64,000 nt of DNA from an uncultured Acidobacteriaceae bacterium (GCA_963808195.1 CAWEEW010000001.1:561130-625129), one strand, 5' to 3'; positions 9,532-58,214 are shown, counted from the first letter of the stretch. Notes: generated by a model not told the origin, from the letters alone. Program-made: numbers and translations.

Positions 9532-9728
9532 GGGTTACCTCCGTTTACATATTTACTTATGATCGAGCCGTTATTTCCCTTAGGGAAGGGCGTTTGCGCA
9601 CTCCCGGTTCCGCGGAAAGAATGGATTTATCTCCGATGCGCCTTCTTCTCCCGGGCTGCGGCTTTGGAAGCTTTGGTGGCAAGTTCACGGCGCTCCGTCG
9701 CGGTCATTCGTCCATGCGGAGAAGATAC

Positions 9729-48102: not shown

Positions 48103-48543
48103 ATGCATCACGCTGTTGCCGCAGTTCTGTTTTTTGCTGTTGCTTTGCCCATCGTCTCTCAGGCGCAGTCTCCCGCGCCCTCCGACAAACCGTTCGTTGT
48201 CGAGTATTACTACAAAACCAAGTGGGGACACGCGGATGAATTTCTCAAATTGTTTAAGAAAAATCATTATCCCGTGCTCAAGAAAGAAATTGAGATGGGC
48301 CGTATTGCCAAGGTCTGGATGGATCAACCGCGCTACCACACGACCGAAGACGGACGCTGGGACTTCCGCGTCACCATCGTCTTCAAGAACGCAACCGTGG
48401 CCAACGAACCCTTCGATGAGGCGGCACTGCAGAAACAGATGTATCCGGATCAGGAAACCTTTCAGCGCGAAGAACAGCGGCGCTTCGAGATTCTCGATGC
48501 GCATTGGGACTTGCCGGTGAAAACCGTAGAGTTGGAGAAGTAG
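48103..48543 (+). CDS. Secreted hypothetical protein
   Basis: 146-aa ORF with signal peptide MHHAVAAVLFFAVALPIVSQAQS. No family recognised. Confidence 0.6.
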   Translation: MHHAVAAVLFFAVALPIVSQAQSPAPSDKPFVVEYYYKTKWGHADEFLKLFKKNHYPVLKKEIEMGRIAKVWMDQPRYHTTEDGRWDFRVTIVFKNATVANEPFDEAALQKQMYPDQETFQREEQRRFEILDAHWDLPVKTVELEK

Positions 48544-48545
48544 TC

Positions 48546-48702
48546 GCCAGTACCCAGTACCTAGTGCATAGCATCGTGCATAGCATCCGGTTTCTGGGTA
48601 TAGCTCTCATCAGGCCGGAATGATGGTTTTGATTTTCCCGGGCTAGGTACTCGGCGCTTGGCGCTTGGTACTGGCTACTGGGTACTGGGTACTGGGTACT
48701 GC
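48546..48702. repeat. Heptamer-built hairpin B: left arm GCCAGTA CCCAGTA CCTAGTG CATAGCA TCGTGCA, right arm 8 in-register units TAGGTAC TCGGCGC TTGGCGC TTGGTAC TGGCTAC TGGGTAC x3
   Basis: Read directly; the right arm spans 48644-48699 in perfect 7-nt register. Also contains the 12-mer tandem GTGCATAGCATC x2. Confidence 0.8.
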
Positions 48703-49610: not shown

Positions 49611-49694
49611 TTGGCAATTAGCAATTGGCAGTTAGCACATGCTGGTCACCAGATGCGAGTTGGCAGGTGCTAATGGCTAACTGCTAATTGCTCG
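49611..49694. repeat. Heptamer-built hairpin C: TTGGCAA TTAGCAA TTGGCAG TTAGCAC ... GTGCTAA TGGCTAA CTGCTAA TTGCTCG
   Basis: Four in-register 7-nt units per arm with complementary arms. The unit sequence differs from hairpins A and B. Confidence 0.8.
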
Positions 49695-50678: not shown

Positions 50679-52205
50679 TTGTATCAAAAACGCCCCGGAG
50701 TTTTCATGGCCGATTGGTTTGACGCGGATGGTCGCCGTCATCGTAAGCAGTTTAAAAAAGCTGATGATGCAAAGAAACACGAACACCGCGAAGCCGCCTT
50801 GGCGCATGCTGTTCGTGCCAACCGAGAGCTGAAGTTATCCGGTGCAGCTGGTGGCAAAAGATCGGCTAGGTCAGAGACTGTAACTGCCACCAACGTCGAA
50901 ATTGCCCCAGCGAAAGGGAAGCTGGGCGTCATGATCCCCGGCATGGGTGCGGTCGCGACCACATTTGTGGCCGGTGTGGAGGCGATTCGCAAAGGGCTGG
51001 CGAAACCGATCGGCTCGCTGACTCAGATGGGCACGGTGCGCCTGGGCAAGCGCACGGATGGCCGCTCTCCGAAGATCAAGGAGTTTGTGCCGCTCGCCGG
51101 CCTTGACGACCTGGTCTTCACCGGCTGGGACATCTTCGAGGACAACATGTACGAAGCGGCCTCGAACGCCGGCGTGCTCGACCAGCGGCTGCTCGACCAG
51201 TTGAAGCCCTTTCTTTTGTCGGTCACGCCGCGCGCGGCGGTGTTCGATCACAACTATGTGAAAAAGATCGACGGGCCCAACGTGAAGAAGGGCAAAACGA
51301 AAATGGATTTGGCCGAACAATTACGCGACGACATTCGTGACTTCAAGAAGACCAGCGGCGCCAGCCGTTTGATCACGATGTGGTGCGGATCGACTGAGTC
51401 TTATATCGAAGCCGGAGAGGCCCACCAGTCCGTCAAGTCTTTTGAGAAGGCGCTGCGCGCGAATGATGACATGATCGCACCCTCGATGGTCTATGCCTAT
51501 GCGTCGCTGATGGAAGGCGTGCCATTTGCAAATGGCGCGCCGAATCTGACCGTCGATCTGCCTGTGATGCTCGAACTCTCGAGGCAGAACGAAGCTCCCG
51601 TCTGCGGCAAGGATTTCAAAACTGGACAGACTTTGATGAAGACCATCCTCGCCCCCGGCTTTAAAGCACGAATGCTGGGGCTGAATGGATGGTTCTCAAC
51701 CAACATCCTCGGCAACCGCGACGGCGAAGTGCTCGACGACCCGGGGTCTTTTAAAACCAAGGAAGAGTCGAAGCTTTCGGTGCTCGAACACATTCTGCAG
51801 CCGGAACTTTATCCTGAGCTTTACGGCGATATGTATCACAAAGTTCGCATCAACTACTATCCGCCGCGCGGCGATAACAAAGAAGGGTGGGACAACATCG
51901 ATATCTTCGGATGGCTGGGTTATCCCATGCAAATCAAAGTCGATTTTCTATGCCGCGATTCGATCCTGGCAGCGCCCATCGTCCTCGACTTAGTGTTGCT
52001 GATGGATCTGGCGAAGCGCTGCTCGGAGTTGAAGGGCCTCGGAATTCAAGAGTGGCTGAGCTTCTACTTCAAGTCTCCTATGACTGTGCCGGGCCTATAT
52101 CCCGAGCATGATTTATTTATTCAGCTCATGAAACTGAAAAATACGCTGCGGCATTTGAAGGGGGAAGAACTGATCACGCATTTGGGGCTGGAGTATTACG
52201 ACTAG
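50679..52205 (+). CDS. ino1: Inositol-3-phosphate synthase with a foreign-looking (integrase-like) N-terminal extension of roughly 80 codons
   Basis: The core from about 50919 (KLGVMIPGMGAVATTFVAGVEAIRKG...GWDIFEDN...NGAPN...CGKDFKTGQT...SKLSVLE) matches myo-inositol-1-phosphate synthase. The ORF opens at TTG 50679 or ATG 50706. See findings. Confidence 0.85.
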   Translation: MYQKRPGVFMADWFDADGRRHRKQFKKADDAKKHEHREAALAHAVRANRELKLSGAAGGKRSARSETVTATNVEIAPAKGKLGVMIPGMGAVATTFVAGVEAIRKGLAKPIGSLTQMGTVRLGKRTDGRSPKIKEFVPLAGLDDLVFTGWDIFEDNMYEAASNAGVLDQRLLDQLKPFLLSVTPRAAVFDHNYVKKIDGPNVKKGKTKMDLAEQLRDDIRDFKKTSGASRLITMWCGSTESYIEAGEAHQSVKSFEKALRANDDMIAPSMVYAYASLMEGVPFANGAPNLTVDLPVMLELSRQNEAPVCGKDFKTGQTLMKTILAPGFKARMLGLNGWFSTNILGNRDGEVLDDPGSFKTKEESKLSVLEHILQPELYPELYGDMYHKVRINYYPPRGDNKEGWDNIDIFGWLGYPMQIKVDFLCRDSILAAPIVLDLVLLMDLAKRCSELKGLGIQEWLSFYFKSPMTVPGLYPEHDLFIQLMKLKNTLRHLKGEELITHLGLEYYD

Positions 52206-52223
52206 TCTTGTGTGTCGGCGAGG

Positions 52224-52247
52224 CGCGCGCCGGAGATCTTCGGCGCG
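52224..52247 (+). terminator. GC hairpin after the synthase gene (GCGCGCCG-gagatctt-CGGCGCGC)
   Basis: 8-bp stem 19 nt after the stop. No U-tract. Confidence 0.35.
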
Positions 52248-52314
52248 CTGATCGCCGTTGTCCCTCGGGTAAGTTACCTAGTATAAATTTCCTCGGAAAA
52301 ATCGAGCCTCGGCC

Positions 52315-52342
52315 TTGACTCCGTCCTCACGCGTTCTATCAT
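52315..52342 (+). promoter_or_regulatory. Sigma70-like promoter candidate TTGACT-16 nt-TATCAT
   Basis: Read directly, about 70 nt upstream of the 79-codon ORF. Confidence 0.3.
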
Positions 52343-52414
52343 GAAGGTAACGCTCCTCCCTAGGGTAGGGGACAACCCAACCAATAACCGTAGTTCAAAG
52401 TGGAGGAAGTCCCC

Positions 52415-52654
52415 ATGAAATTAAATGACAGCATTTCAACCTATGACGTTGCCGAAGCTTTACAGGGCGAGACCGGCAAATTTGAAGTAACCAGCCCCAA
52501 TGGAGAACGCTATTTCGTTACGTGTCAGCCGGGTCACTCTATCGTCAGTTTGGAGTGGGCCGGAACTGAGCCAAACCTGCAACCCTTCCTCGTACGCAAA
52601 GTAGCCCAACCCATTGCGACGGAGGGTCGCTCCAAGAGATCCGCGGCTGCCTGA
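52415..52654 (+). CDS. Hypothetical small protein
   Basis: ORF 52400 (GTG). ATG 52415 is preceded by GGAGGAAG. 79 aa, MKLNDSISTYDVAEALQGETGKFEV... No family recognised. Confidence 0.45.
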   Translation: MKLNDSISTYDVAEALQGETGKFEVTSPNGERYFVTCQPGHSIVSLEWAGTEPNLQPFLVRKVAQPIATEGRSKRSAAA

Positions 52655-52677
52655 TTTTCCGGCGCCTCAATAAAACA

Positions 52678-52702
52678 AGCCCAGCCCCGATCAGGCTGGG
52701 CT
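52678..52702. terminator. Bidirectional rho-independent terminator AGCCCAGCC-ccgatca-GGCTGGGCT flanked by T-runs on both strands
   Basis: 9-bp stem. TTCTTTTC lies downstream on the plus strand and TGTTTTATT on the minus strand. It sits between the convergent small ORF and vapC. Confidence 0.7.
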
Positions 52703-52712
52703 TTCTTTTCCC

Positions 52713-53102
52713 TTACCAAACCGTCCTGAGCAGCGGGCTTTTGCGGATTCTCTCGTCGTGAGTGACTAGAGTCAAACCCTCCGCGCGGGCTGTGCCGCCG
52801 ATGATGCGGTCGGCGGGGTCGCCGGAATAATCGGGCGGGAATTGAGCAGCCAGTGTGGCGATCTCTGGGGTGATTGGGAGCACGGTGACGCCTTCGATCA
52901 GCAGATTGAGCGAGGATTCAAGCGTGCCGTAACGGCGAATGCGTCCGCGTGCCAGCATGGACGCGAGTTCCCAGATGCTGATTGCAGAAATTGCGATCCC
53001 GCCATTTCGCCGGGCACGGCGGATGGCGGATGCTGCGGGGCGGGAAAGGGACTTCGAATTGTCTATCGCCCAAAACAAGGCGTGCGTGTCCAGTAGAATC
53101 AA
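52713..53102 (-). CDS. vapC: Type II toxin, PIN-domain VapC family
   Basis: MILLDTHALFWAIDN..., SAISIWELASM and LVTHDERI are PIN/VapC signatures. 4-nt overlap with the antitoxin gene. Confidence 0.85.
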   Translation of the reverse strand: MILLDTHALFWAIDNSKSLSRPAASAIRRARRNGGIAISAISIWELASMLARGRIRRYGTLESSLNLLIEGVTVLPITPEIATLAAQFPPDYSGDPADRIIGGTARAEGLTLVTHDERIRKSPLLRTVW

Positions 53103-53326
53103 AACGCGGATTCCCAGCTCTCGGGCGGGTCCGCATCGAGGTCGCCAACCACTTCAAACACACCCTTCAATCTACCGATAAACTCGTCTTTTGGTTCGTC
53201 GAGGGGAACCAGTTTCGCGATCGGTTTGCCGCGTTTCGTAATCACTATCGGCCGCCTGGTCGAGCGTACGTCTTCCATCAGAGTAAGGCACCGGGCCTTG
53301 AAGATTGCCGCGGAGATTTCCTTCAT
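53099..53326 (-). CDS. Type II antitoxin, Phd/YefM family
   Basis: MKEISAAIFKARCLTLMEDVRSTRRPIVITKRGKPIAKLVPL is the classic Phd/YefM N-terminus. An alternative GTG start lies at 53332. Confidence 0.85.
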   Translation of the reverse strand: MKEISAAIFKARCLTLMEDVRSTRRPIVITKRGKPIAKLVPLDEPKDEFIGRLKGVFEVVGDLDADPPESWESAF

Positions 53327-53374
53327 AGACACATTATAGCAGCCATGGTCAAGTCGAAATGACCACGTTGTTTG

Positions 53375-53430
53375 TCAAGCATTCTTCCCCCGCTTGTACT
53401 CGTCGAACTTCGCCAGGAATTCTCTCTTCC
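53375..53430 (-). repeat. Stub copy of the aminotransferase gene 3' end (reads FGKREFLAKFDEYKRGKNA*)
   Basis: cccgcttgtactcgtcgaacttcgccaggaattc... aligns by eye with 55141-55180 and 56671-56712. It starts 14 nt after the BNR gene stop. Confidence 0.6.
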
Positions 53431-53443
53431 CAAAGGAAAAAAC

Positions 53444-54993
53444 CTATTCGACCGTCACCCTTAGAAAGATGGGGTCGATTTTATGAAACGGCCTCCCGAA
53501 TGGTTGACCGTCTCCGGAAAAAACGCCGTAGAAGGTTTGACCTACACTTTTCAGTTGCTGGTAATCGCCGAGAGGGCGCGGACCAGCGTTGCCGCTCGAC
53601 TTTCCTGGAAAGAGAAACCTTTGCAGCCGAACGGTTTGAAAAGTGGCGCCTCGATTCCGGCTGACTGCTAAGTAAACCGAAAAGAATGGCTTCGAAGTAT
53701 CTTTATCCAGGGCATCGGCCGTGTCGTACAGGACTCCCACAGCTCCGTTGTCGGTCACTGCGACAGCGGGAAGCGCCGATTGATGTTCCGGACCGCTGAC
53801 ATATTGTGGAGCGCCGGGTACCATCGAGCCATTGCCTTGGTTAACGACCCGCACAATGCCGATCCGATCCCGTCCAGCGCTTTGATCGAACTTGCCAAAG
53901 GCGACATAGACGTCGCCTGTCCCGGATCGACAGCCAGGGCATCCACCCCGCCACGAAGAACGTTGACTCCTCCCAGGATGGTGCCGGGTTCGATTTCGCC
54001 GAAACTGTAAGTGTAGATATCCTGATGACTACACGCTTCCGCCACTTGGATTCCGTTCGGATTACCATTCAAACCCCACGTACGGCCGCCATCCAGCGAG
54101 CGATTCAAAACATAGCTGACCGCAGAGGCGCGCGGACACTCCAGCGAAGCCCTGGTCTGGTGAAGGCTGTAAATCGCTCCGGATCGCTGGTCCACGGCGA
54201 CTCGTTGCGCGGCATTGCCGCCAAAAGTCTCAACCGAACCGGTTGACTTATCGATGGTAAAGTCGGGAGGAACTTTTGCTTCGGCCACGGCGACCTGCAT
54301 GGCGGTCGACTGGTAGCCGACATAAACGTTGTCGATTTGGGGATGGTGCAGACTTTTGTTGACAGCAAGCCAGGGCTGATCGGGGGCGGTGTGCTGGTTC
54401 GTAGGTTTCGTTTTCCCGTCGACGACTAACCAGCCCCAAGCCTCGCTTTTTCCGGGATCATTCGTCGCTCCGCTAACAATCGTGCCTTCTGCCTTCGTGT
54501 TCTGCGTTCCTTCATCTGAGCTGCAATTCGCTCCTTCTCCATTTCCACTCAGCAGGAAGGTTCCGTAGAGCACGCCGCGGCGGTCGTAATCGAATGTCTC
54601 ATCACACGGCGATTCCTGGACAAGCCCTCCGTCGACGCCCGGAGGGGCGGGGATGGAGAATTCTTTCGTCCACAAATTGCCGTCGTCGCGCGTGTACCAG
54701 AGGGGAGCATTTTGAAATTGACCGTTCGGCGACTTGCTCCAGGCTCCGGAAAACGCCGAAATAACAATCCTGCGCGGGTCGGCGGGATTGATGGCGATCC
54801 CCGGCTCCGCGTTGAAGAATTTGTCTGTGTTCCTCAGATCGCGATCAGTGTTGCTCACCACAACATCGGCCAGAAACACGTTGGGGAAGCGCGCCCGGCC
54901 AGCAGACTTCACCGAAGTATCGGCGCTCTGGTTGGCAACGAATAGCAAACTCGCGGTTAGCAGGAGGGCTCCGCCGATTACGGGGTACTTCAT
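53444..54993 (-). pseudogene. Secreted BNR/sialidase-like beta-propeller protein, reading frame broken by a 1-nt shift near 53918-53926
   Basis: ORFs 53755..55008 and 53444..53854 overlap in different frames. Joined, they read ...GGVDALAVDP/GTGDVYVAFGKFDQSAGRDRIGIVRVVNQGNG.... BNR-like SxDxGxTW motifs are present (TRDDGNLWT, SLDGGRTWG, SRNRGATFQ). Signal peptide from ATG 54993. Confidence 0.7.
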
Positions 54994-55123
54994 GGTGGGT
55001 AACTCCAAATCGGCGGAACTATAGCATAGATTCGAAAACTTGCGCCGATTTTAGCGGGTGGTGATGCAGTTCCGAACAAGCATTTTTGCTGAGCTTCCGG
55101 CCCTTTTGGAGCTGGCAGGCGGC

Positions 55124-55235
55124 TTACGCCAGCTTCTTCTCCCGCTTGTACTCGTCAAACTTCCAGGAATCTGTCAATATCCTTCTTCTGCAAGTAGTAC
55201 GGCGTCGATAGCCGCAGCTTGTTGGTGGTCTGCGA
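55124..55235 (-). pseudogene. Relic copy of the last ~35 codons of the aminotransferase gene
   Basis: About 90% identical by eye to 56660-56766. A 2-nt deletion breaks the frame. The tail reads KFDEYKREKKLA*. Confidence 0.75.
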
Positions 55236-55385
55236 CTCGGGATTCGGGAGTGGTGAGCTTTTACTTCAAAGTCTCCCATGACTGTGCCGGGGCTGTATCT
55301 CGAGCATGATTTATTTATACAGCTGATGAACACGCTGCGGCATTTTAAAGGCGAGGAACTGATCACGCAACTTGGGTTGGAATAG
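55236..55385 (+). pseudogene. Relic copy of the last ~55 codons of the inositol-3-phosphate synthase gene
   Basis: About 85% identical by eye to 52036-52205. It has a 1-nt insertion (ttcaaagtc vs ttcaagtc), a 9-nt deletion and a different stop. Confidence 0.75.
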
Positions 55386-55441
55386 TAAGACTCGATCAAT
55401 CTCCGAAGAACGTGCATCGTCAGCTGCTTGTCGAAGGATTT

Positions 55442-56581
55442 TCACGGATACTTCACCCAGGGTTCATCGCTTCCTACGGGCGGCAAGTTTTTCAGATTCT
55501 CGGGACGGTAGTCCAGCCGCTTTTCCCATCGAATCCGCACTGTCTGGTGAATCTGGGGATTTGCCGGAAGCGTACGCGGACTGCCCATGGGCACGGACCA
55601 CTTGTACGTCTTCGTGTTGAAGTCGTAGGACTTGTGAGGTAAATACTCAAGGATCCACCATAGTCCTTTCAGAGAAACGTTCAGATCGGCAACGGGATTG
55701 GGCGCATAACGCGGATCGGGATACGAAAGAACGGAATGTACCCGATCGGGATGAAGCAGTAGCCCCCTGCTTTCAGCTTCCACCAGCATCCACTCTAAAG
55801 CGATTTGCGACAGCCCGCTTTTTTCCGGTGCATAGCTTCCTCCAACGTCGGAGTGAACGCCTGCGAACCAGACCTGTTTAAAATCCTGGGTGATTGGGCT
55901 GAGCGTTCCGTCGCCCAAATCGTCACCCGTACACAGCCGTGTGAACGAGTTTTGCCGGAAGAAGATTCTTCTCTCATCGATGGACTGAGCATGACGGACA
56001 TTCGCGATGATGGGATTTCGGGCAGTGTATGGCAGCCGTACCGGCTCGGTGATCCATCCCACGGAACTCACGGTGTCCCACAGACCGGCAAAATGAATAA
56101 AGCAGCGGCGCGAAAAGGTCTCCTGAAACTGCCGGGCTTCGTCCAGCAAGGCAAGATGGTTTTCATTGTGCCGCCTTTGGAACATTCGGAGAACATAAGG
56201 AATTTGAGACTCATTGCCAGGGCAGAGCAGACCAAACATTTTCAGCAGGCTAGCCAGGGCCCGCGCCGTGTAAGCGCCACGGCTAAATCCGAAGAGGAAC
56301 ACGCGAGCGTCTTCTTCGTAGGTTTGCATCAAGTACTGATACGCTCGGCCGACATCCTCAAAAAGACCGCCGCCAAAAGCCAAACCTATGACGCGCGACC
56401 ACTCCTTTTCCCACCAGGTGCGGGCGTTGGGCGCCCCCATTGTTCCCACGCCCGGATGGTAGTAGGCAACCTGCTCTCGGTTGACTACCAGGGTACTGTA
56501 AAGCTTCACCACATTAGAGTTACGACTCGGATCAAATTCGTTTCCCGTTCCGTCGCAGCAGATGACGATGTTTTTTGACAT
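55442..56581 (-). CDS. DUF2235 alpha/beta hydrolase (Tle1-like phospholipase fold)
   Basis: MSKNIVICCDGTGNEF..., YHPGVGT, FGFSRGAYTARALASLL and GVHSDVGG are signatures I associate with DUF2235/T6SS Tle1. Confidence 0.8.
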   Translation of the reverse strand: MSKNIVICCDGTGNEFDPSRNSNVVKLYSTLVVNREQVAYYHPGVGTMGAPNARTWWEKEWSRVIGLAFGGGLFEDVGRAYQYLMQTYEEDARVFLFGFSRGAYTARALASLLKMFGLLCPGNESQIPYVLRMFQRRHNENHLALLDEARQFQETFSRRCFIHFAGLWDTVSSVGWITEPVRLPYTARNPIIANVRHAQSIDERRIFFRQNSFTRLCTGDDLGDGTLSPITQDFKQVWFAGVHSDVGGSYAPEKSGLSQIALEWMLVEAESRGLLLHPDRVHSVLSYPDPRYAPNPVADLNVSLKGLWWILEYLPHKSYDFNTKTYKWSVPMGSPRTLPANPQIHQTVRIRWEKRLDYRPENLKNLPPVGSDEPWVKYP

Positions 56582-56659
56582 ATTCGGTTCTTGAAGCGTG
56601 CCGTTTCATGCTAATGGAGCACGCTTGATCCACCAAAGGTCTAGCCATGTGAAGGACCA

Positions 56660-57943
56660 CTACGTTTTCACGCGCTTGTACTCGTCAAACTTCTCTAGGA
56701 ATCTGTCGATATCCTTCTTCTGCAAATAATACGGCGTCGACAGCCGCAGCTTGTTGGGGTCTGCGCCGCGAATTCTGATTTTGTGGGTCTTCCACATCCA
56801 GTTTTCTAAATCCATGCGCGGGACCGGCGGCACATTCACCGTGACGATCGCGCAACGCAGGGCGGAATCGGGCGAAGTCCAGGATTCCGCGCCGCGTTTC
56901 TTCATTTCATCCAGCATGTAGTCGGCGAGTTTTCGATGGCGCCGCTCGATGCGGTCTAAGCCAATATCGTTCGCCAATTTGATGGAAGCGCGCAATCCCC
57001 ACAGTGCCGGGACGTTCGAGCTGCCGATTCGCTGGAATCGTTCGGCGCGGAGCTTGGGATCGTCCCAACCCTCGGTGACAATCGTATTCCACAGGCGATC
57101 GATCACTTCGTCGCGCACGTAAAGAAATCCTGAGCCCTTGGGTGCCTGCAGCCACTTGTGCGGGCTCGACGAGTACATGTCGCAGCCGAGGTCGCGAATA
57201 TTCAGGCGCATCATCCCGGTGACGTGCGCGCCGTCAATCGCGGAAAGAATCCCTTTCATGCGAGCGAGTGCACTGAGCTCTTTCGCGGGAAGAACCACAC
57301 CGGAAAAAGTCGTGATGTGACTGAAGAAGATCACGCGTGTGCGCGGAGTGATGGCATCGTTGAAAAGATTGAGAACCTGCGCGGCGTCTTTTACAGGGCG
57401 GGGAAGGACGACTCGCTTCACCACGATGCCGTAGCGCTTGGCCTTCAGGTTCCACGGGTGCTCGCCGCCGGGGTGCTCCTGATCGGTCATCAGCACTTCG
57501 TCGCCGGGCTTCAGGTCGATGCCGTTTGCGATGTAGCTGTTCGCTTCCGTGGCGTTGCGGAGCAGTGCGATCTCATCGCGATGGCAACCGACGAAGGCGG
57601 CGAGGGGATCACGAAACTCGTTCCAGGAGGCGTATCCCCAGATGGGATAGTCTTCGGGATCCTGCTGATCCATCTTCTCAGTCGTGGTGTAGCCCTCGAA
57701 AACGGCGCGCAGCACCGGCGCGGGGCTGGAGCCGACGGTCCCGTTGTTCAGATAAATTTCGTCCTCGGGAATCAGGAATTGCTTGCGCAGTTCGCTCCAG
57801 TAGGTGTCCTCATTCTTATCGAAGAGAGCGGAGTCGGGCAAGGTCGAGGGAACTTTCTCAAGCTGGGCAATGAGGTTCCCACGAACGGCCAAGGTGGCGG
57901 CGAGTGTGGTTGTGGTCGTGAGGAAACGGCGGCGGTCGAGCAA
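56660..57943 (-). CDS. Tat-signal, class V-fold PLP-dependent aminotransferase/desulfurase-like enzyme
   Basis: ORF to 58123. TTG 57943 is preceded by GGGAGG and gives LLDRRRFLTTTTTLAATLAV (twin-arginine signal). The fold-type I class V pattern includes the SSPHKW PLP-lysine motif. Confidence 0.8.
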   Translation of the reverse strand: MLDRRRFLTTTTTLAATLAVRGNLIAQLEKVPSTLPDSALFDKNEDTYWSELRKQFLIPEDEIYLNNGTVGSSPAPVLRAVFEGYTTTEKMDQQDPEDYPIWGYASWNEFRDPLAAFVGCHRDEIALLRNATEANSYIANGIDLKPGDEVLMTDQEHPGGEHPWNLKAKRYGIVVKRVVLPRPVKDAAQVLNLFNDAITPRTRVIFFSHITTFSGVVLPAKELSALARMKGILSAIDGAHVTGMMRLNIRDLGCDMYSSSPHKWLQAPKGSGFLYVRDEVIDRLWNTIVTEGWDDPKLRAERFQRIGSSNVPALWGLRASIKLANDIGLDRIERRHRKLADYMLDEMKKRGAESWTSPDSALRCAIVTVNVPPVPRMDLENWMWKTHKIRIRGADPNKLRLSTPYYLQKKDIDRFLEKFDEYKRVKT

Positions 57944-58214
57944 GCGCACCTCCCGGGGATGGAAGACGGAACGGGCTATGTTACGACCTGCGCGGACGCC
58001 GGGCAAGGAGGGAATCGGTGGCTCGGTGATCTGCCGCCGCTGGAGCCGTTTTGAGTCAATATTTCGAACCGGGATTTTGATTTCGCAGGCCAATCCTGGA
58101 TAACCCGAAACGCAGAATGGCACGTCTAACCCGATAGGGTGGAGTTCGGGCGCTGGGGCTTGTAACCCGGGCGTATAATCGTCGTAAGAGTACGTGGCCG
58201 CAAAAGGGGTATTT

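Follow-up and report, generated by a model that had tools for sequence, protein, structure and literature searches.

The interval between a myo-inositol-1-phosphate synthase (MIPS) gene and a convergent class-V aminotransferase (AT) gene is, on our reading of the sequence, probably a recombination hotspot in which alternative versions of the intervening genes were stacked, not swapped, through a pair of crossovers, one homologous and one at microhomology. This interval, hereafter the slot, lies in a 64-kb stretch of DNA (the window) and holds three accessory blocks from different relatives, with the leftover end of a flanking gene at each junction. As no mobile-element enzyme is present, ordinary, slightly imprecise recombination was probably the builder.

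Gene content of the slot

The slot is bounded by the MIPS gene (50679-52205, plus strand; Pfam NAD_binding_5, 9e-101, and Inos-1-P_synth) and the AT gene (56660-58123, minus strand; Pfam Aminotran_5, 4e-44). Next to MIPS lies orf84 (52400-52654, plus strand), a small conserved ORF of this clade only, which has no Pfam match, is 99-100% identical at the amino acid level in the sister contigs L081, L089, and L090, and varies little among them at the first two positions of codons. A bidirectional terminator-like hairpin (52677-52703) lies 3' of it. There follow, on the minus strand, a gene for a vapC-like PIN toxin (52713-53102; Pfam PIN, 1.8e-19) and one for a Phd/YefM-type antitoxin, vapB (53099-53332; Pfam PhdYeFM_antitox, 1e-9). 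This pair is a separate toxin-antitoxin module, and vapC occupies the same MIPS-adjoining position in L004 and L012 (90-91% amino acid identity) and in L009.

Beyond a stub of the AT gene is a gene for a secreted BNR/Asp-box-like protein (53444-55008, minus strand; weak Asp-box match), whose frame is shifted in the window by the private loss of 1 nt near 53921. Homologues in the same position (L089, L090, L091, and L092) include the intact P0121 and P0122, of 517-521 amino acids. Homologues at 60-65% identity lie in unrelated contexts, so that the origin of this second layer is only proposed. The last cargo gene, between the relic gene ends and AT, encodes a DUF2235/Tle1-like alpha/beta-hydrolase (55442-56581, minus strand; Pfam T6SS_Tle1-like_cat, 1.5e-74) that is 99% identical at the amino acid level in L081, L089, L090, and L092. 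This gene order, the anatomy of the locus, and the idea of serial additions each bringing a fresh 3' end had all been put forward in a first-pass annotation made from the sequence alone, and they are upheld here.

Pfam detected no recombinase domain in any ORF of 52206-56659 or in the N-terminal extension of MIPS, in agreement with the earlier statement that no integrase lies inside the slot. No tRNA or Rfam element was found in the slot, PADLOC gave no matches, and no toxin-tip/immunity pairs were seen. The MIPS extension itself (50679-50921, ahead of a core enzyme that begins at about 50922) had been read as an integrase-like N-terminus. It has no Pfam match at E<=10, and from 11/12 to 29/36 of its differences from the sister contigs are at third codon positions. 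It is a conserved coding extension, in frame with MIPS and under purifying selection, and therefore not a decaying integrase remnant.

Repeated gene ends

On alignment, the repeats recognized in the first-pass annotation proved to lie essentially where it placed them and to score far above chance (47-173, against about 17±2 for shuffles). The working MIPS 3' end (52037-52205, plus strand; its inner limit, position X, is at about 52037) recurs in the same orientation as a relic of the last ~56 codons at 55235-55394, with a local score of 173 (shuffles 17.7±2.3, maximum 31) and 23 substitutions in ~157 aligned nt, or 85% identity. That identity, a 1-nt insertion, and a 9-nt deletion had been correctly described; a 1-nt deletion, the second of two premature stops (TAT>TAG and TAC>TAA), and the end at 55394 had been missed. 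The 1-nt deletion and insertion are 17 nt apart and together leave the frame unchanged, and all of these indels and stops are common to the sister contigs.

The working AT 3' end (56660-56770, minus strand; position Y at about 56766-56770) recurs as a relic of the last 36 codons at 55124-55234, also on the minus strand; 56666-56766 against 55136-55234 scores 149 (shuffles 17.1±2.1). Here the ~90% identity and the 2-nt deletion noted earlier stand, with the addition of an overlooked 1-nt insertion; both indels are private to the window, and the relic is in frame in L089 and L092. The third copy, a stub reported as ~55 nt, is real, but its AT homology covers 48 nt (53375-53422, minus strand), namely the last 15 codons and stop, EFLAKFDEYKRGKNA*. 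Its core (53385-53420) scores 47-58 against each of the other AT copies (shuffles 16±2.2, maximum 25). The AT reading frame runs unbroken across 56770. No extra copy of either tail occurs elsewhere in the 64-kb window, and no att-like core or inverted repeats were found at the repeats and block ends. The repeats are unequal in length (~160, 110, and 48 nt) and share no common core; the AT copies reach three depths (15, 36, and 36+ codons) and the MIPS copy 56 codons.

Substitutions between copies are concentrated at third codon positions, with 18/23 in the MIPS pair (13 synonymous and 7 non-synonymous codon changes) and 5/6 in the AT pair. The combined figure of 23/29 has P=5e-7 against 1/3 and P=1.7e-4 against 45%, the expectation for one copy decaying in place, and the changes polarized to the relic branch are biased in the same way (7/10). 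The repeats are real, and they are not duplicates that decayed in place.

The peptide tails of the AT copies were verified as KFDEYKREKKLA*, KFDEYKRGKNA*, and KFDEYKRVKT*. They give three C-termini (…KKLA*, …KNA*, and …KT*), each a close match to the working AT end of some relative, and one an exact match: KREKKLA*, of the relic, is the working end in L001 and L012. The KRGKNA* of the stub is close to the KREKNA* of L004, in which vapCB is 91% identical at the amino acid level, and the working KRVKT* is close to the KQRKT* of L006. The tail copies carry allelic C-termini that serve relatives as working ends.

Slot versions in relatives

Terriglobales loci carry at least six types of slot. The empty junction of convergent MIPS and AT genes, for which a search of relatives had been suggested, is present in L006, L013, and L014; L004, L012, and L009 have the order MIPS-vapCB-AT; and a tight Tle1><MIPS pair is found in 17 metagenome loci. 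In L085 the order is M48-HGSNAT-[AT stub]-Tle1><MIPS. These are simpler, parental types of the slot. Window positions 52714-53419 are collinear with L004 DNA, which continues into that locus's own AT end, and the stub sits where the working AT stop lies in MIPS-vapCB-AT relatives. Similarly, 55239-56583 is collinear with the MIPS tail and Tle1 gene of L085, the left end of the Tle1 block being a neighboring chromosomal MIPS end in its natural position relative to Tle1, as in relatives. The exact donor arrangements, AT(KT*)-Tle1><MIPS or AT-BNR, were absent among the relatives found. Synonymous-biased divergence of the copies, allelic C-termini, and collinearity with Tle1><MIPS genomes together point to a foreign donor.

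The joint and the sister contigs

The AT and MIPS relics meet head to head, AT interior (Y) to MIPS interior (X), at 55228-55246; the same joint was read in L081, L089, and L092. The earlier placement at about 55235, with microhomology, holds (the joint is between 55234 and 55235), but the crossover falls outside the GAATTC-like motif that had been proposed, in a GCC/GGC triplet that lies 5-8 nt left of it. This microhomology lies inside an interrupted patch of ~14 nt (AT GCGCCGCG-AATTC / MIPS GGGCCTCGGAATTC). The GAATTC of the AT gene (56770-56775) is private to the window and reads GAATGC in four sister contigs. Homology-facilitated illegitimate recombination is expected to leave a single novel joint at 3-10 nt of microhomology and a seamless homologous side, and the slot has a single joint with short microhomology and no repeat core, together with a seamless AT side.

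Gene order, stub, and joint are common to six independent metagenome contigs from different samples and assemblers (JGI 3300062720, 3300043783, 3300031823, and Ga0210390; ENA ERZ27256918), which differ by 1-10% elsewhere and each carry private indels. Erosion is lineage-specific, consisting of deletions at 4-nt microhomologies and a frameshift: L090 and L091 have lost 55201-55349 at GGCG, and L081 has lost the BNR gene at GAGC.

Divergence among the contigs is mosaic, with a trough of 0.3-1.3% over Tle1 and its spacers, 6-7% in the MIPS body, and 3-11.5% in the AT body. The low-diversity block includes the working AT 3' end. In three AT haplotypes its right edge falls at 56753-56789, ~20 nt or less from Y. 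On the left, the block stops at the joint in L081 and L090, where the AT relics differ by 7-13% and the adjacent MIPS relic by 0-4.5%. Such low divergence beside flanking genes that differ by 3-11% indicates recent spread. Random homologous crossovers predict less sharp edges than these, which need either very short tracts in ~10%-diverged DNA or a discrete cassette.

Proposed origin and alternatives

In each round of stacking, DNA from a related genome would recombine by ordinary homology on the AT side and, on the other, through an illegitimate joint that needs only a few microhomologous bases. The incoming piece would supply its own AT end, so that AT stays intact, and the resident end would be displaced downstream as a dead relic. 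The oldest layer would be MIPS-orf84-vapCB with the …KNA* end, today's stub; the second would be the BNR gene with the …KKLA* end, today's relic; and the newest would be a piece of a 'MIPS >< Tle1 < AT' slot, running from ~170 nt inside MIPS to just beyond 110 nt inside AT and bringing the present …KT* end. The same product would result if a circularized fragment entered through one crossover within the AT tail. Later, the composite, above all its 1.5-kb Tle1 block, would have spread by homologous recombination among ~90%-identical lineages while the relics eroded through small deletions. We infer the order of events from nesting and diversity only, and likewise infer the recombination pathway and the route of DNA transfer.

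The sharp edges could also be taken to mean that 55235-56770 (MIPS relic, Tle1, and AT tail) forms a separate mobile cassette, non-autonomous and inserted at one position in the AT gene with a replacement 3' end aboard. It would be moved by a recombinase encoded elsewhere, or by RecA-dependent loop-out between the AT repeats and Campbell-type re-integration, with the BNR layer as an older example of the same type of element. The block is 98.7-99.7% identical across lineages whose flanks differ by 3-13%, ends at Y and at the joint, restores the AT reading frame, and lies between direct repeats (99-110 nt, 90% identity). We nevertheless consider a cassette improbable. There is no recombinase in or beside the slot, the block is without inverted repeats or an att-like core, and its left end is an ordinary chromosomal piece of MIPS; neither an empty BNR-AT site nor a copy at another locus was found, and Tle1 is present here without repeats in L094 and L084. 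All carriers have one joint and the same relic indels, and therefore a single origin suffices. In addition, the tail of L081 misfits a simple single-crossover model, and edges of this sharpness can also be imitated by short tracts of recombination in diverged DNA.

A tandem duplication of the junction between the convergent genes was one of the two processes suggested in the first-pass annotation; it would have arisen by an unequal illegitimate crossover between X and Y, with end decay and separate cargo insertions to follow. It would yield exactly the head-to-head joint observed, and the microhomology also fits, but we judge it very unlikely. Decay in place expects randomness by codon position, whereas the differences between copies are overwhelmingly synonymous; the AT copies encode different allelic C-termini used by relatives; no cargo is common to the two 'duplicated' intervals; and the MIPS relic with Tle1 is a natural adjacency in the 17 other loci. 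The third AT copy requires a further event, and rescue requires later allelic replacement of both working tails. Least credible of all, and close to negligible, is a chimeric join of strain variants during metagenome assembly. The apparent source is a soil acidobacterium that has not been cultured, its close relatives all come from metagenome assemblies, and strain mixtures are evidently present in such samples; however, the joint recurs in six independent contigs that are otherwise divergent, and is therefore no assembly artefact.

Comparison with known systems

Stacking of slot versions would resemble homology-facilitated illegitimate recombination and "3'-end displacement" as described elsewhere. 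In the account of Kirchberger et al. 2017 (PMC5361080; also Jackson et al. 2009, cited therein), arrays of displaced 3' ends ('orphans') at Rhs, CDI, and T6SS effector-immunity loci are attributed to this process: without an integrase, a module enters by homology on its conserved side but through an illegitimate joint on the other, and the former 3' end, displaced downstream, survives as a relic. According to the same account, repeated rounds leave the newest module nearest the intact gene, and homologous recombination subsequently spreads the arrays. The slot likewise shows one-sided homology, displaced relic ends, the presumed newest module beside the intact gene, and no integrase. It differs in that the relics derive from genes for two housekeeping enzymes and not from a polymorphic toxin gene; both convergent neighbors have left an end, and these are fused head to head; the cargo consists of unrelated accessory genes, not toxin tips and immunity genes; and there is no evident selective advantage of the kind that retained immunity would offer. 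A toxin-tip array of the Rhs/T6SS type was rejected accordingly, as the displaced ends are those of MIPS and a class-V aminotransferase and toxin-tip/immunity pairs are lacking.

Homology-facilitated illegitimate recombination is cited in PMC5361080 as shown in Acinetobacter, Pseudomonas stutzeri, and Streptococcus pneumoniae, and is described for conjugation in E. coli in PMC3240628. As in these experiments, the slot has one homologous anchor, one joint where microhomology spans a few bases, and foreign DNA added beside the anchor. Unlike those laboratory events with marked DNA, the process here is deduced only from natural sequence, and the donor would be an allelic version of the same locus.

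Integrase-mediated islands accrete in tandem at tRNA or gene 3' ends, with attL and attR as copies of the target 3' end. In the slot, too, direct repeats of 3' ends partition the cargo blocks and the element-proximal copy keeps the gene intact; the target is restored and relatives have empty sites, which recombinational stacking predicts as well. The other process suggested earlier, serial integration of elements that aim at a gene 3' end and rebuild it, finds no support in its stated form: the slot has no integrase or other recombinase, its three repeat lengths are unequal with neither a common core nor a shared target nucleotide, and its 'element' ends are pieces of neighboring chromosomal genes, the left being MIPS. 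Element-borne att sites also conflict with L094 and L084, which have Tle1 and vapBC at the locus without any repeats, an arrangement that the first-pass annotation had itself named as refuting.

Integron cassettes are recognized by an intI integrase, an attI site, and attC hairpins at cassette ends; this candidate was dismissed, as there is no integrase and the block ends lack suitable inverted repeats. In Neisseria minimal mobile elements and other core-gene hotspots, different genes lie between the same conserved flanks and are exchanged through flank homology, with no mobility genes. The slot has the corresponding features, that is, content that varies between the same two genes, no mobility genes, and mosaic divergence that places exchange in the flanks. 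Classical exchange swaps cargo cleanly, whereas the versions in this slot were added, with gene-end scars.

Genes of the locus

The interval at 50.6-58.2 kb of the window is a clean natural record of accessory genes piling up at a chromosomal hotspot without mobile-element machinery. Two convergent housekeeping genes frame it, both assigned by Pfam: the myo-inositol-1-phosphate synthase gene (MIPS, plus strand, ending at 52205) and a class-V aminotransferase gene (AT, minus strand, 56660-58123). The slot between them holds orf84 (plus strand, 52400-52654) and, all on the minus strand, the toxin gene vapC (52713-53102) and antitoxin gene vapB (53099-53332) of a PIN/Phd pair, a BNR-like gene with a secreted product (53444-55008) and a DUF2235/Tle1-like hydrolase gene (55442-56581). 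The BNR-like gene was without a match in a curated Pfam scan; its intact homologue P0121 has a weak Asp-box match. No slot ORF carries a recombinase domain by Pfam scan, tRNA and Rfam scans of the locus were both empty, and a PADLOC scan found no defence system.

The Tle1-like protein retains the GxSxG lipase motif as GFSRG. Its gene has no immunity-like neighbour, and T6SS genes are absent from the flanks examined. In L082, a Tle1 homologue (81% identical) sits at an unrelated locus. Looking up the exact Tle1 and VapC proteins of the window found no entry, and relatives of both were obtained via homologue searches instead. At the AT N-terminus (57940-58010), a twin-arginine-like motif (…DRRRFLTTTTTLAATLAVRG…) suggests Tat export, which in a class-V aminotransferase would be unusual; the AT start codon is uncertain, with 427-477 aa called in sister contigs.

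Copied gene ends and their joint

The first-pass annotation had noticed extra copies of both gene 3' ends within the slot, and alignment bears this out, with local scores of 47-173 lying far above shuffled controls. The MIPS tail (52037-52205) recurs as a relic at 55235-55394 (score 173; shuffles 17.7±2.3) and the AT tail (56666-56766) at 55136-55234 (score 149; shuffles 17.1±2.1), while the core (53385-53420) of a third AT copy, a stub, matches the other two with scores of 47-58 (shuffles 16±2.2, maximum 25). No further tail copies were found elsewhere within the 64-kb window. In translation the working AT tail ends in KFDEYKRVKT, the relic in KFDEYKREKKLA and the stub in EFLAKFDEYKRGKNA, each followed by a stop.

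The two relics adjoin head to head at 55234/55235, so that their interiors meet and their stop codons face outward. At this joint of AT interior (Y) with MIPS interior (X), the overlap is GCC/GGC only, inside an interrupted patch (AT GCGCCGCG-AATTC, MIPS GGGCCTCGGAATTC); the AT side of the event is seamless within the AT gene. Both breakpoints lie near GAATTC, and a restriction-fragment origin was considered and rejected: the joint sequence is unlike an EcoRI-end ligation product, and only the window has GAATTC in AT, four sister contigs having GAATGC.

The same composite order is common to six contigs from different samples, namely the window and its sister contigs L081, L089, L090 (=L093), L091 and L092, and in four of them (the window, L081, L089 and L092) the joint is identical and the indels of the MIPS relic agree. 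For practical purposes this excludes an assembly artefact as the source of the repeats. L090 and L091 have lost the DNA corresponding to window 55201-55349, which spans the joint, between two GGCG tetranucleotides (about 11776-11780 in L090), and in L081 a pair of deletions, one of them at a GAGC microhomology (L081rc 9646-9677), has removed most of the BNR gene. These 4-nt microhomologies at deletion edges show that the slot still undergoes illegitimate recombination. A window-only 1-nt deletion at ~53921 (relative to L089, L090 and L092) shifts the BNR frame and splits the gene into ORFs at 53444-53854 and 53755-55008, which overlap. The gene may be a true pseudogene here, or the deletion may be a sequencing error of the homopolymer type.

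Divergence of the copies

The MIPS tail differs from its relic by 23 substitutions, of which 18 affect third codon positions and another two are silent first-position changes in Leu codons; by codon, there are 13 synonymous and 7 non-synonymous changes. The AT tail and relic differ at third positions in 5 of 6 cases. The combined 23/29 departs both from one third (P=5e-7) and from the ~45% expected if one copy had decayed in place while the other stayed functional (P=1.7e-4). Among changes placed on the relic branch by outgroups, 7/10 are at third positions (P=0.02). This bias indicates that most divergence arose while both copies belonged to working genes of separate lineages, and we read the tail copies, from their codon positions, as alleles and not as products of in-place decay. 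Genuine decay is superimposed on the allelic divergence: the MIPS relic carries indels of −1, +1 and −9 nt and two new stops, all common to the sister contigs, and the AT relic carries −2 and +1 indels private to the window.

The three AT copies have three C-termini, each of which matches the working AT end of a relative exactly or within 1-2 residues. The end …KNA is that of L004, where vapCB (91% aa) lies directly upstream of the AT stop; …KKLA is found in L001 and L012, and …KT in L006. No closer donor of the MIPS relic was found among 80 species representatives (≤81%); the window's own MIPS tail stands at ~85%.

The idea that AT stubs are kept as the next gene's promoter is not supported. 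Sister contigs differ by 4-18% in the stub, none of the AT-tail copies has a minus-strand promoter by consensus scan, and the best vapB -10 (TATAAT, by eye) is in the spacer, outside the stub.

Slot versions in relatives

Slots were surveyed in the 80 Terriglobales species representatives and in metagenome loci. About ten loci of the closest relatives have both MIPS and AT, and these keep the order GAF-up144-MIPS-[variable]-AT-M48-citrate synthase. Empty MIPS/AT junctions of ~80-160 nt, which the first-pass annotation had proposed looking for, are present in L006, L013 and L014, and L004, L012 and L009 have the version MIPS-vapCB-AT. The DNA of L004 stays collinear with window DNA as far as 53419, where it enters L004's own AT end; the window's stub thus marks a former AT end.

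In 17 metagenome loci, Tle1 stands back to back with MIPS, 12-30 nt from the MIPS stop. The relative L085 reads M48-HGSNAT-[19-codon AT stub]-Tle1><MIPS and is collinear with window 55239-56583 (MIPS relic and Tle1). Here (L085 1817-1996) an HGSNAT-family gene has taken the place of the whole AT, of which a 19-codon 3' stub survives immediately upstream of Tle1, a second AT-end scar of independent origin. BNR homologues (60-65% identity) occur in unrelated neighbourhoods, among which no AT-BNR parental allele was found.

Spread of the Tle1 block

Pairwise divergence among five contigs is 6-7% in the MIPS body, 3-11.5% in the AT body, 0-11.6% in vapCB, 2-13% in the BNR gene, 0-13% in the AT relic and 0-4.5% in the MIPS relic. 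It falls to 0.3-1.3% in Tle1 plus spacers and 0-1.8% in the working AT tail (7-8% for L081). At third positions the values are 19-25% in MIPS and AT versus 0.3-2.6% in Tle1. The right edge of this trough, at 56753-56789, coincides with repeat end Y (three AT haplotypes); for L081 the edge is close to the AT stop. The flanks are a patchwork of 100-300-nt tracts common to differing contig pairs. Low Tle1 divergence between diverged flanks means that the block spread in recent times among lineages otherwise 87-95% identical. A lipase-like gene of the Tle1/DUF2235 family is sweeping soil acidobacterial lineages ~90% identical to one another, which bears on the reach of homologous recombination in carrying new genes between diverged uncultured bacteria.

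A short patch at 53259-53379 (vapB 5' end and upstream spacer) differs from every sister contig at 8-9 sites per 60 nt, far more than the remaining vapCB differs from L081. This patch was probably imported as a small tract into the window alone.

How the layers were probably added

The short GCC/GGC joint on one side and the seamless AT on the other point to homology-facilitated illegitimate recombination, in which one homologous crossover would be paired with one illegitimate crossover; a fragment circularised at a microhomology and taken up by a single homologous crossover would give the same product. Such a slightly failed swap between locus versions would add cargo, not replace it, and leave a dated scar. 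Because the scars preserve allelic C-termini, both the sources of the layers and their succession are legible in the sequence. Nesting places the newest layer nearest the intact AT, in rough agreement with the diversity ranking (Tle1 < BNR ≤ vapCB). The proposed event would belong to a known kind, recombinational 3'-end displacement at a core-gene-flanked hotspot, here involving two housekeeping genes of an uncultured Acidobacteriota member. Such displacement is proposed in PMC5361080 for T6SS and Rhs arrays, and the window's layer order, newest nearest the intact gene, matches that proposal.

The first-pass annotation had offered tandem duplication of the junction or serial integration of elements that restore a gene end, and what survives is serial addition with renewal of the gene end. 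Duplication of the junction is contradicted by the allelic, third-position-biased differences, by AT C-termini that match three relatives' ends and by the simpler slot versions in relatives. Integrase-mediated integration is not supported, since the slot has neither an integrase nor dedicated element ends, its repeats share no core, and L094 and L084 carry the cargo (AT-Tle1-vapB-vapC) with relics absent.

The low-diversity trough, with its sharp X and Y edges, would also suit a discrete cassette moving by repeat-mediated loop-out and re-integration or by a recombinase in trans, which we consider unlikely. In its specific form, 55235-56770 would be an integrase-free 1.5-kb mobile cassette with the AT 3'-end copy as a portable homology arm, looping out between AT-tail repeats and re-inserting as a unit at the same AT nucleotide in any genome with AT, and would thus have crossed lineages ~90% identical; this, too, is doubtful. 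Were it so, the mobility would be unusual in resting only on borrowed host-gene ends. A simple Campbell model fails for L081, whose relic is unlike the cassette tail; the L081 working tail was therefore probably overwritten later.

The MIPS N-terminal extension

MIPS begins with an in-frame, lysine/arginine-rich extension of 81 aa (50679-50921; LYQKRPGVFMADWFDADGRRHRKQF…), which the first-pass annotation had called integrase-like. Pfam gives it no match, even at E≤10, and by HMM it is no integrase. L006-L011, L018 and every sister contig carry the extension in frame, and L001-L005 have no such segment upstream of MIPS. Differences between sister contigs fall at third positions in 11/12, 22/30, 29/40 and 29/36 cases. 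This substitution pattern marks it as a conserved coding segment under purifying selection, not a decaying integrase fragment. In the upstream intergenic DNA are two imperfect inverted repeats (48542-48700 and 49614-49691), which consist of short tandem motifs of GGTACT-like and GCAATTAGC-like units.
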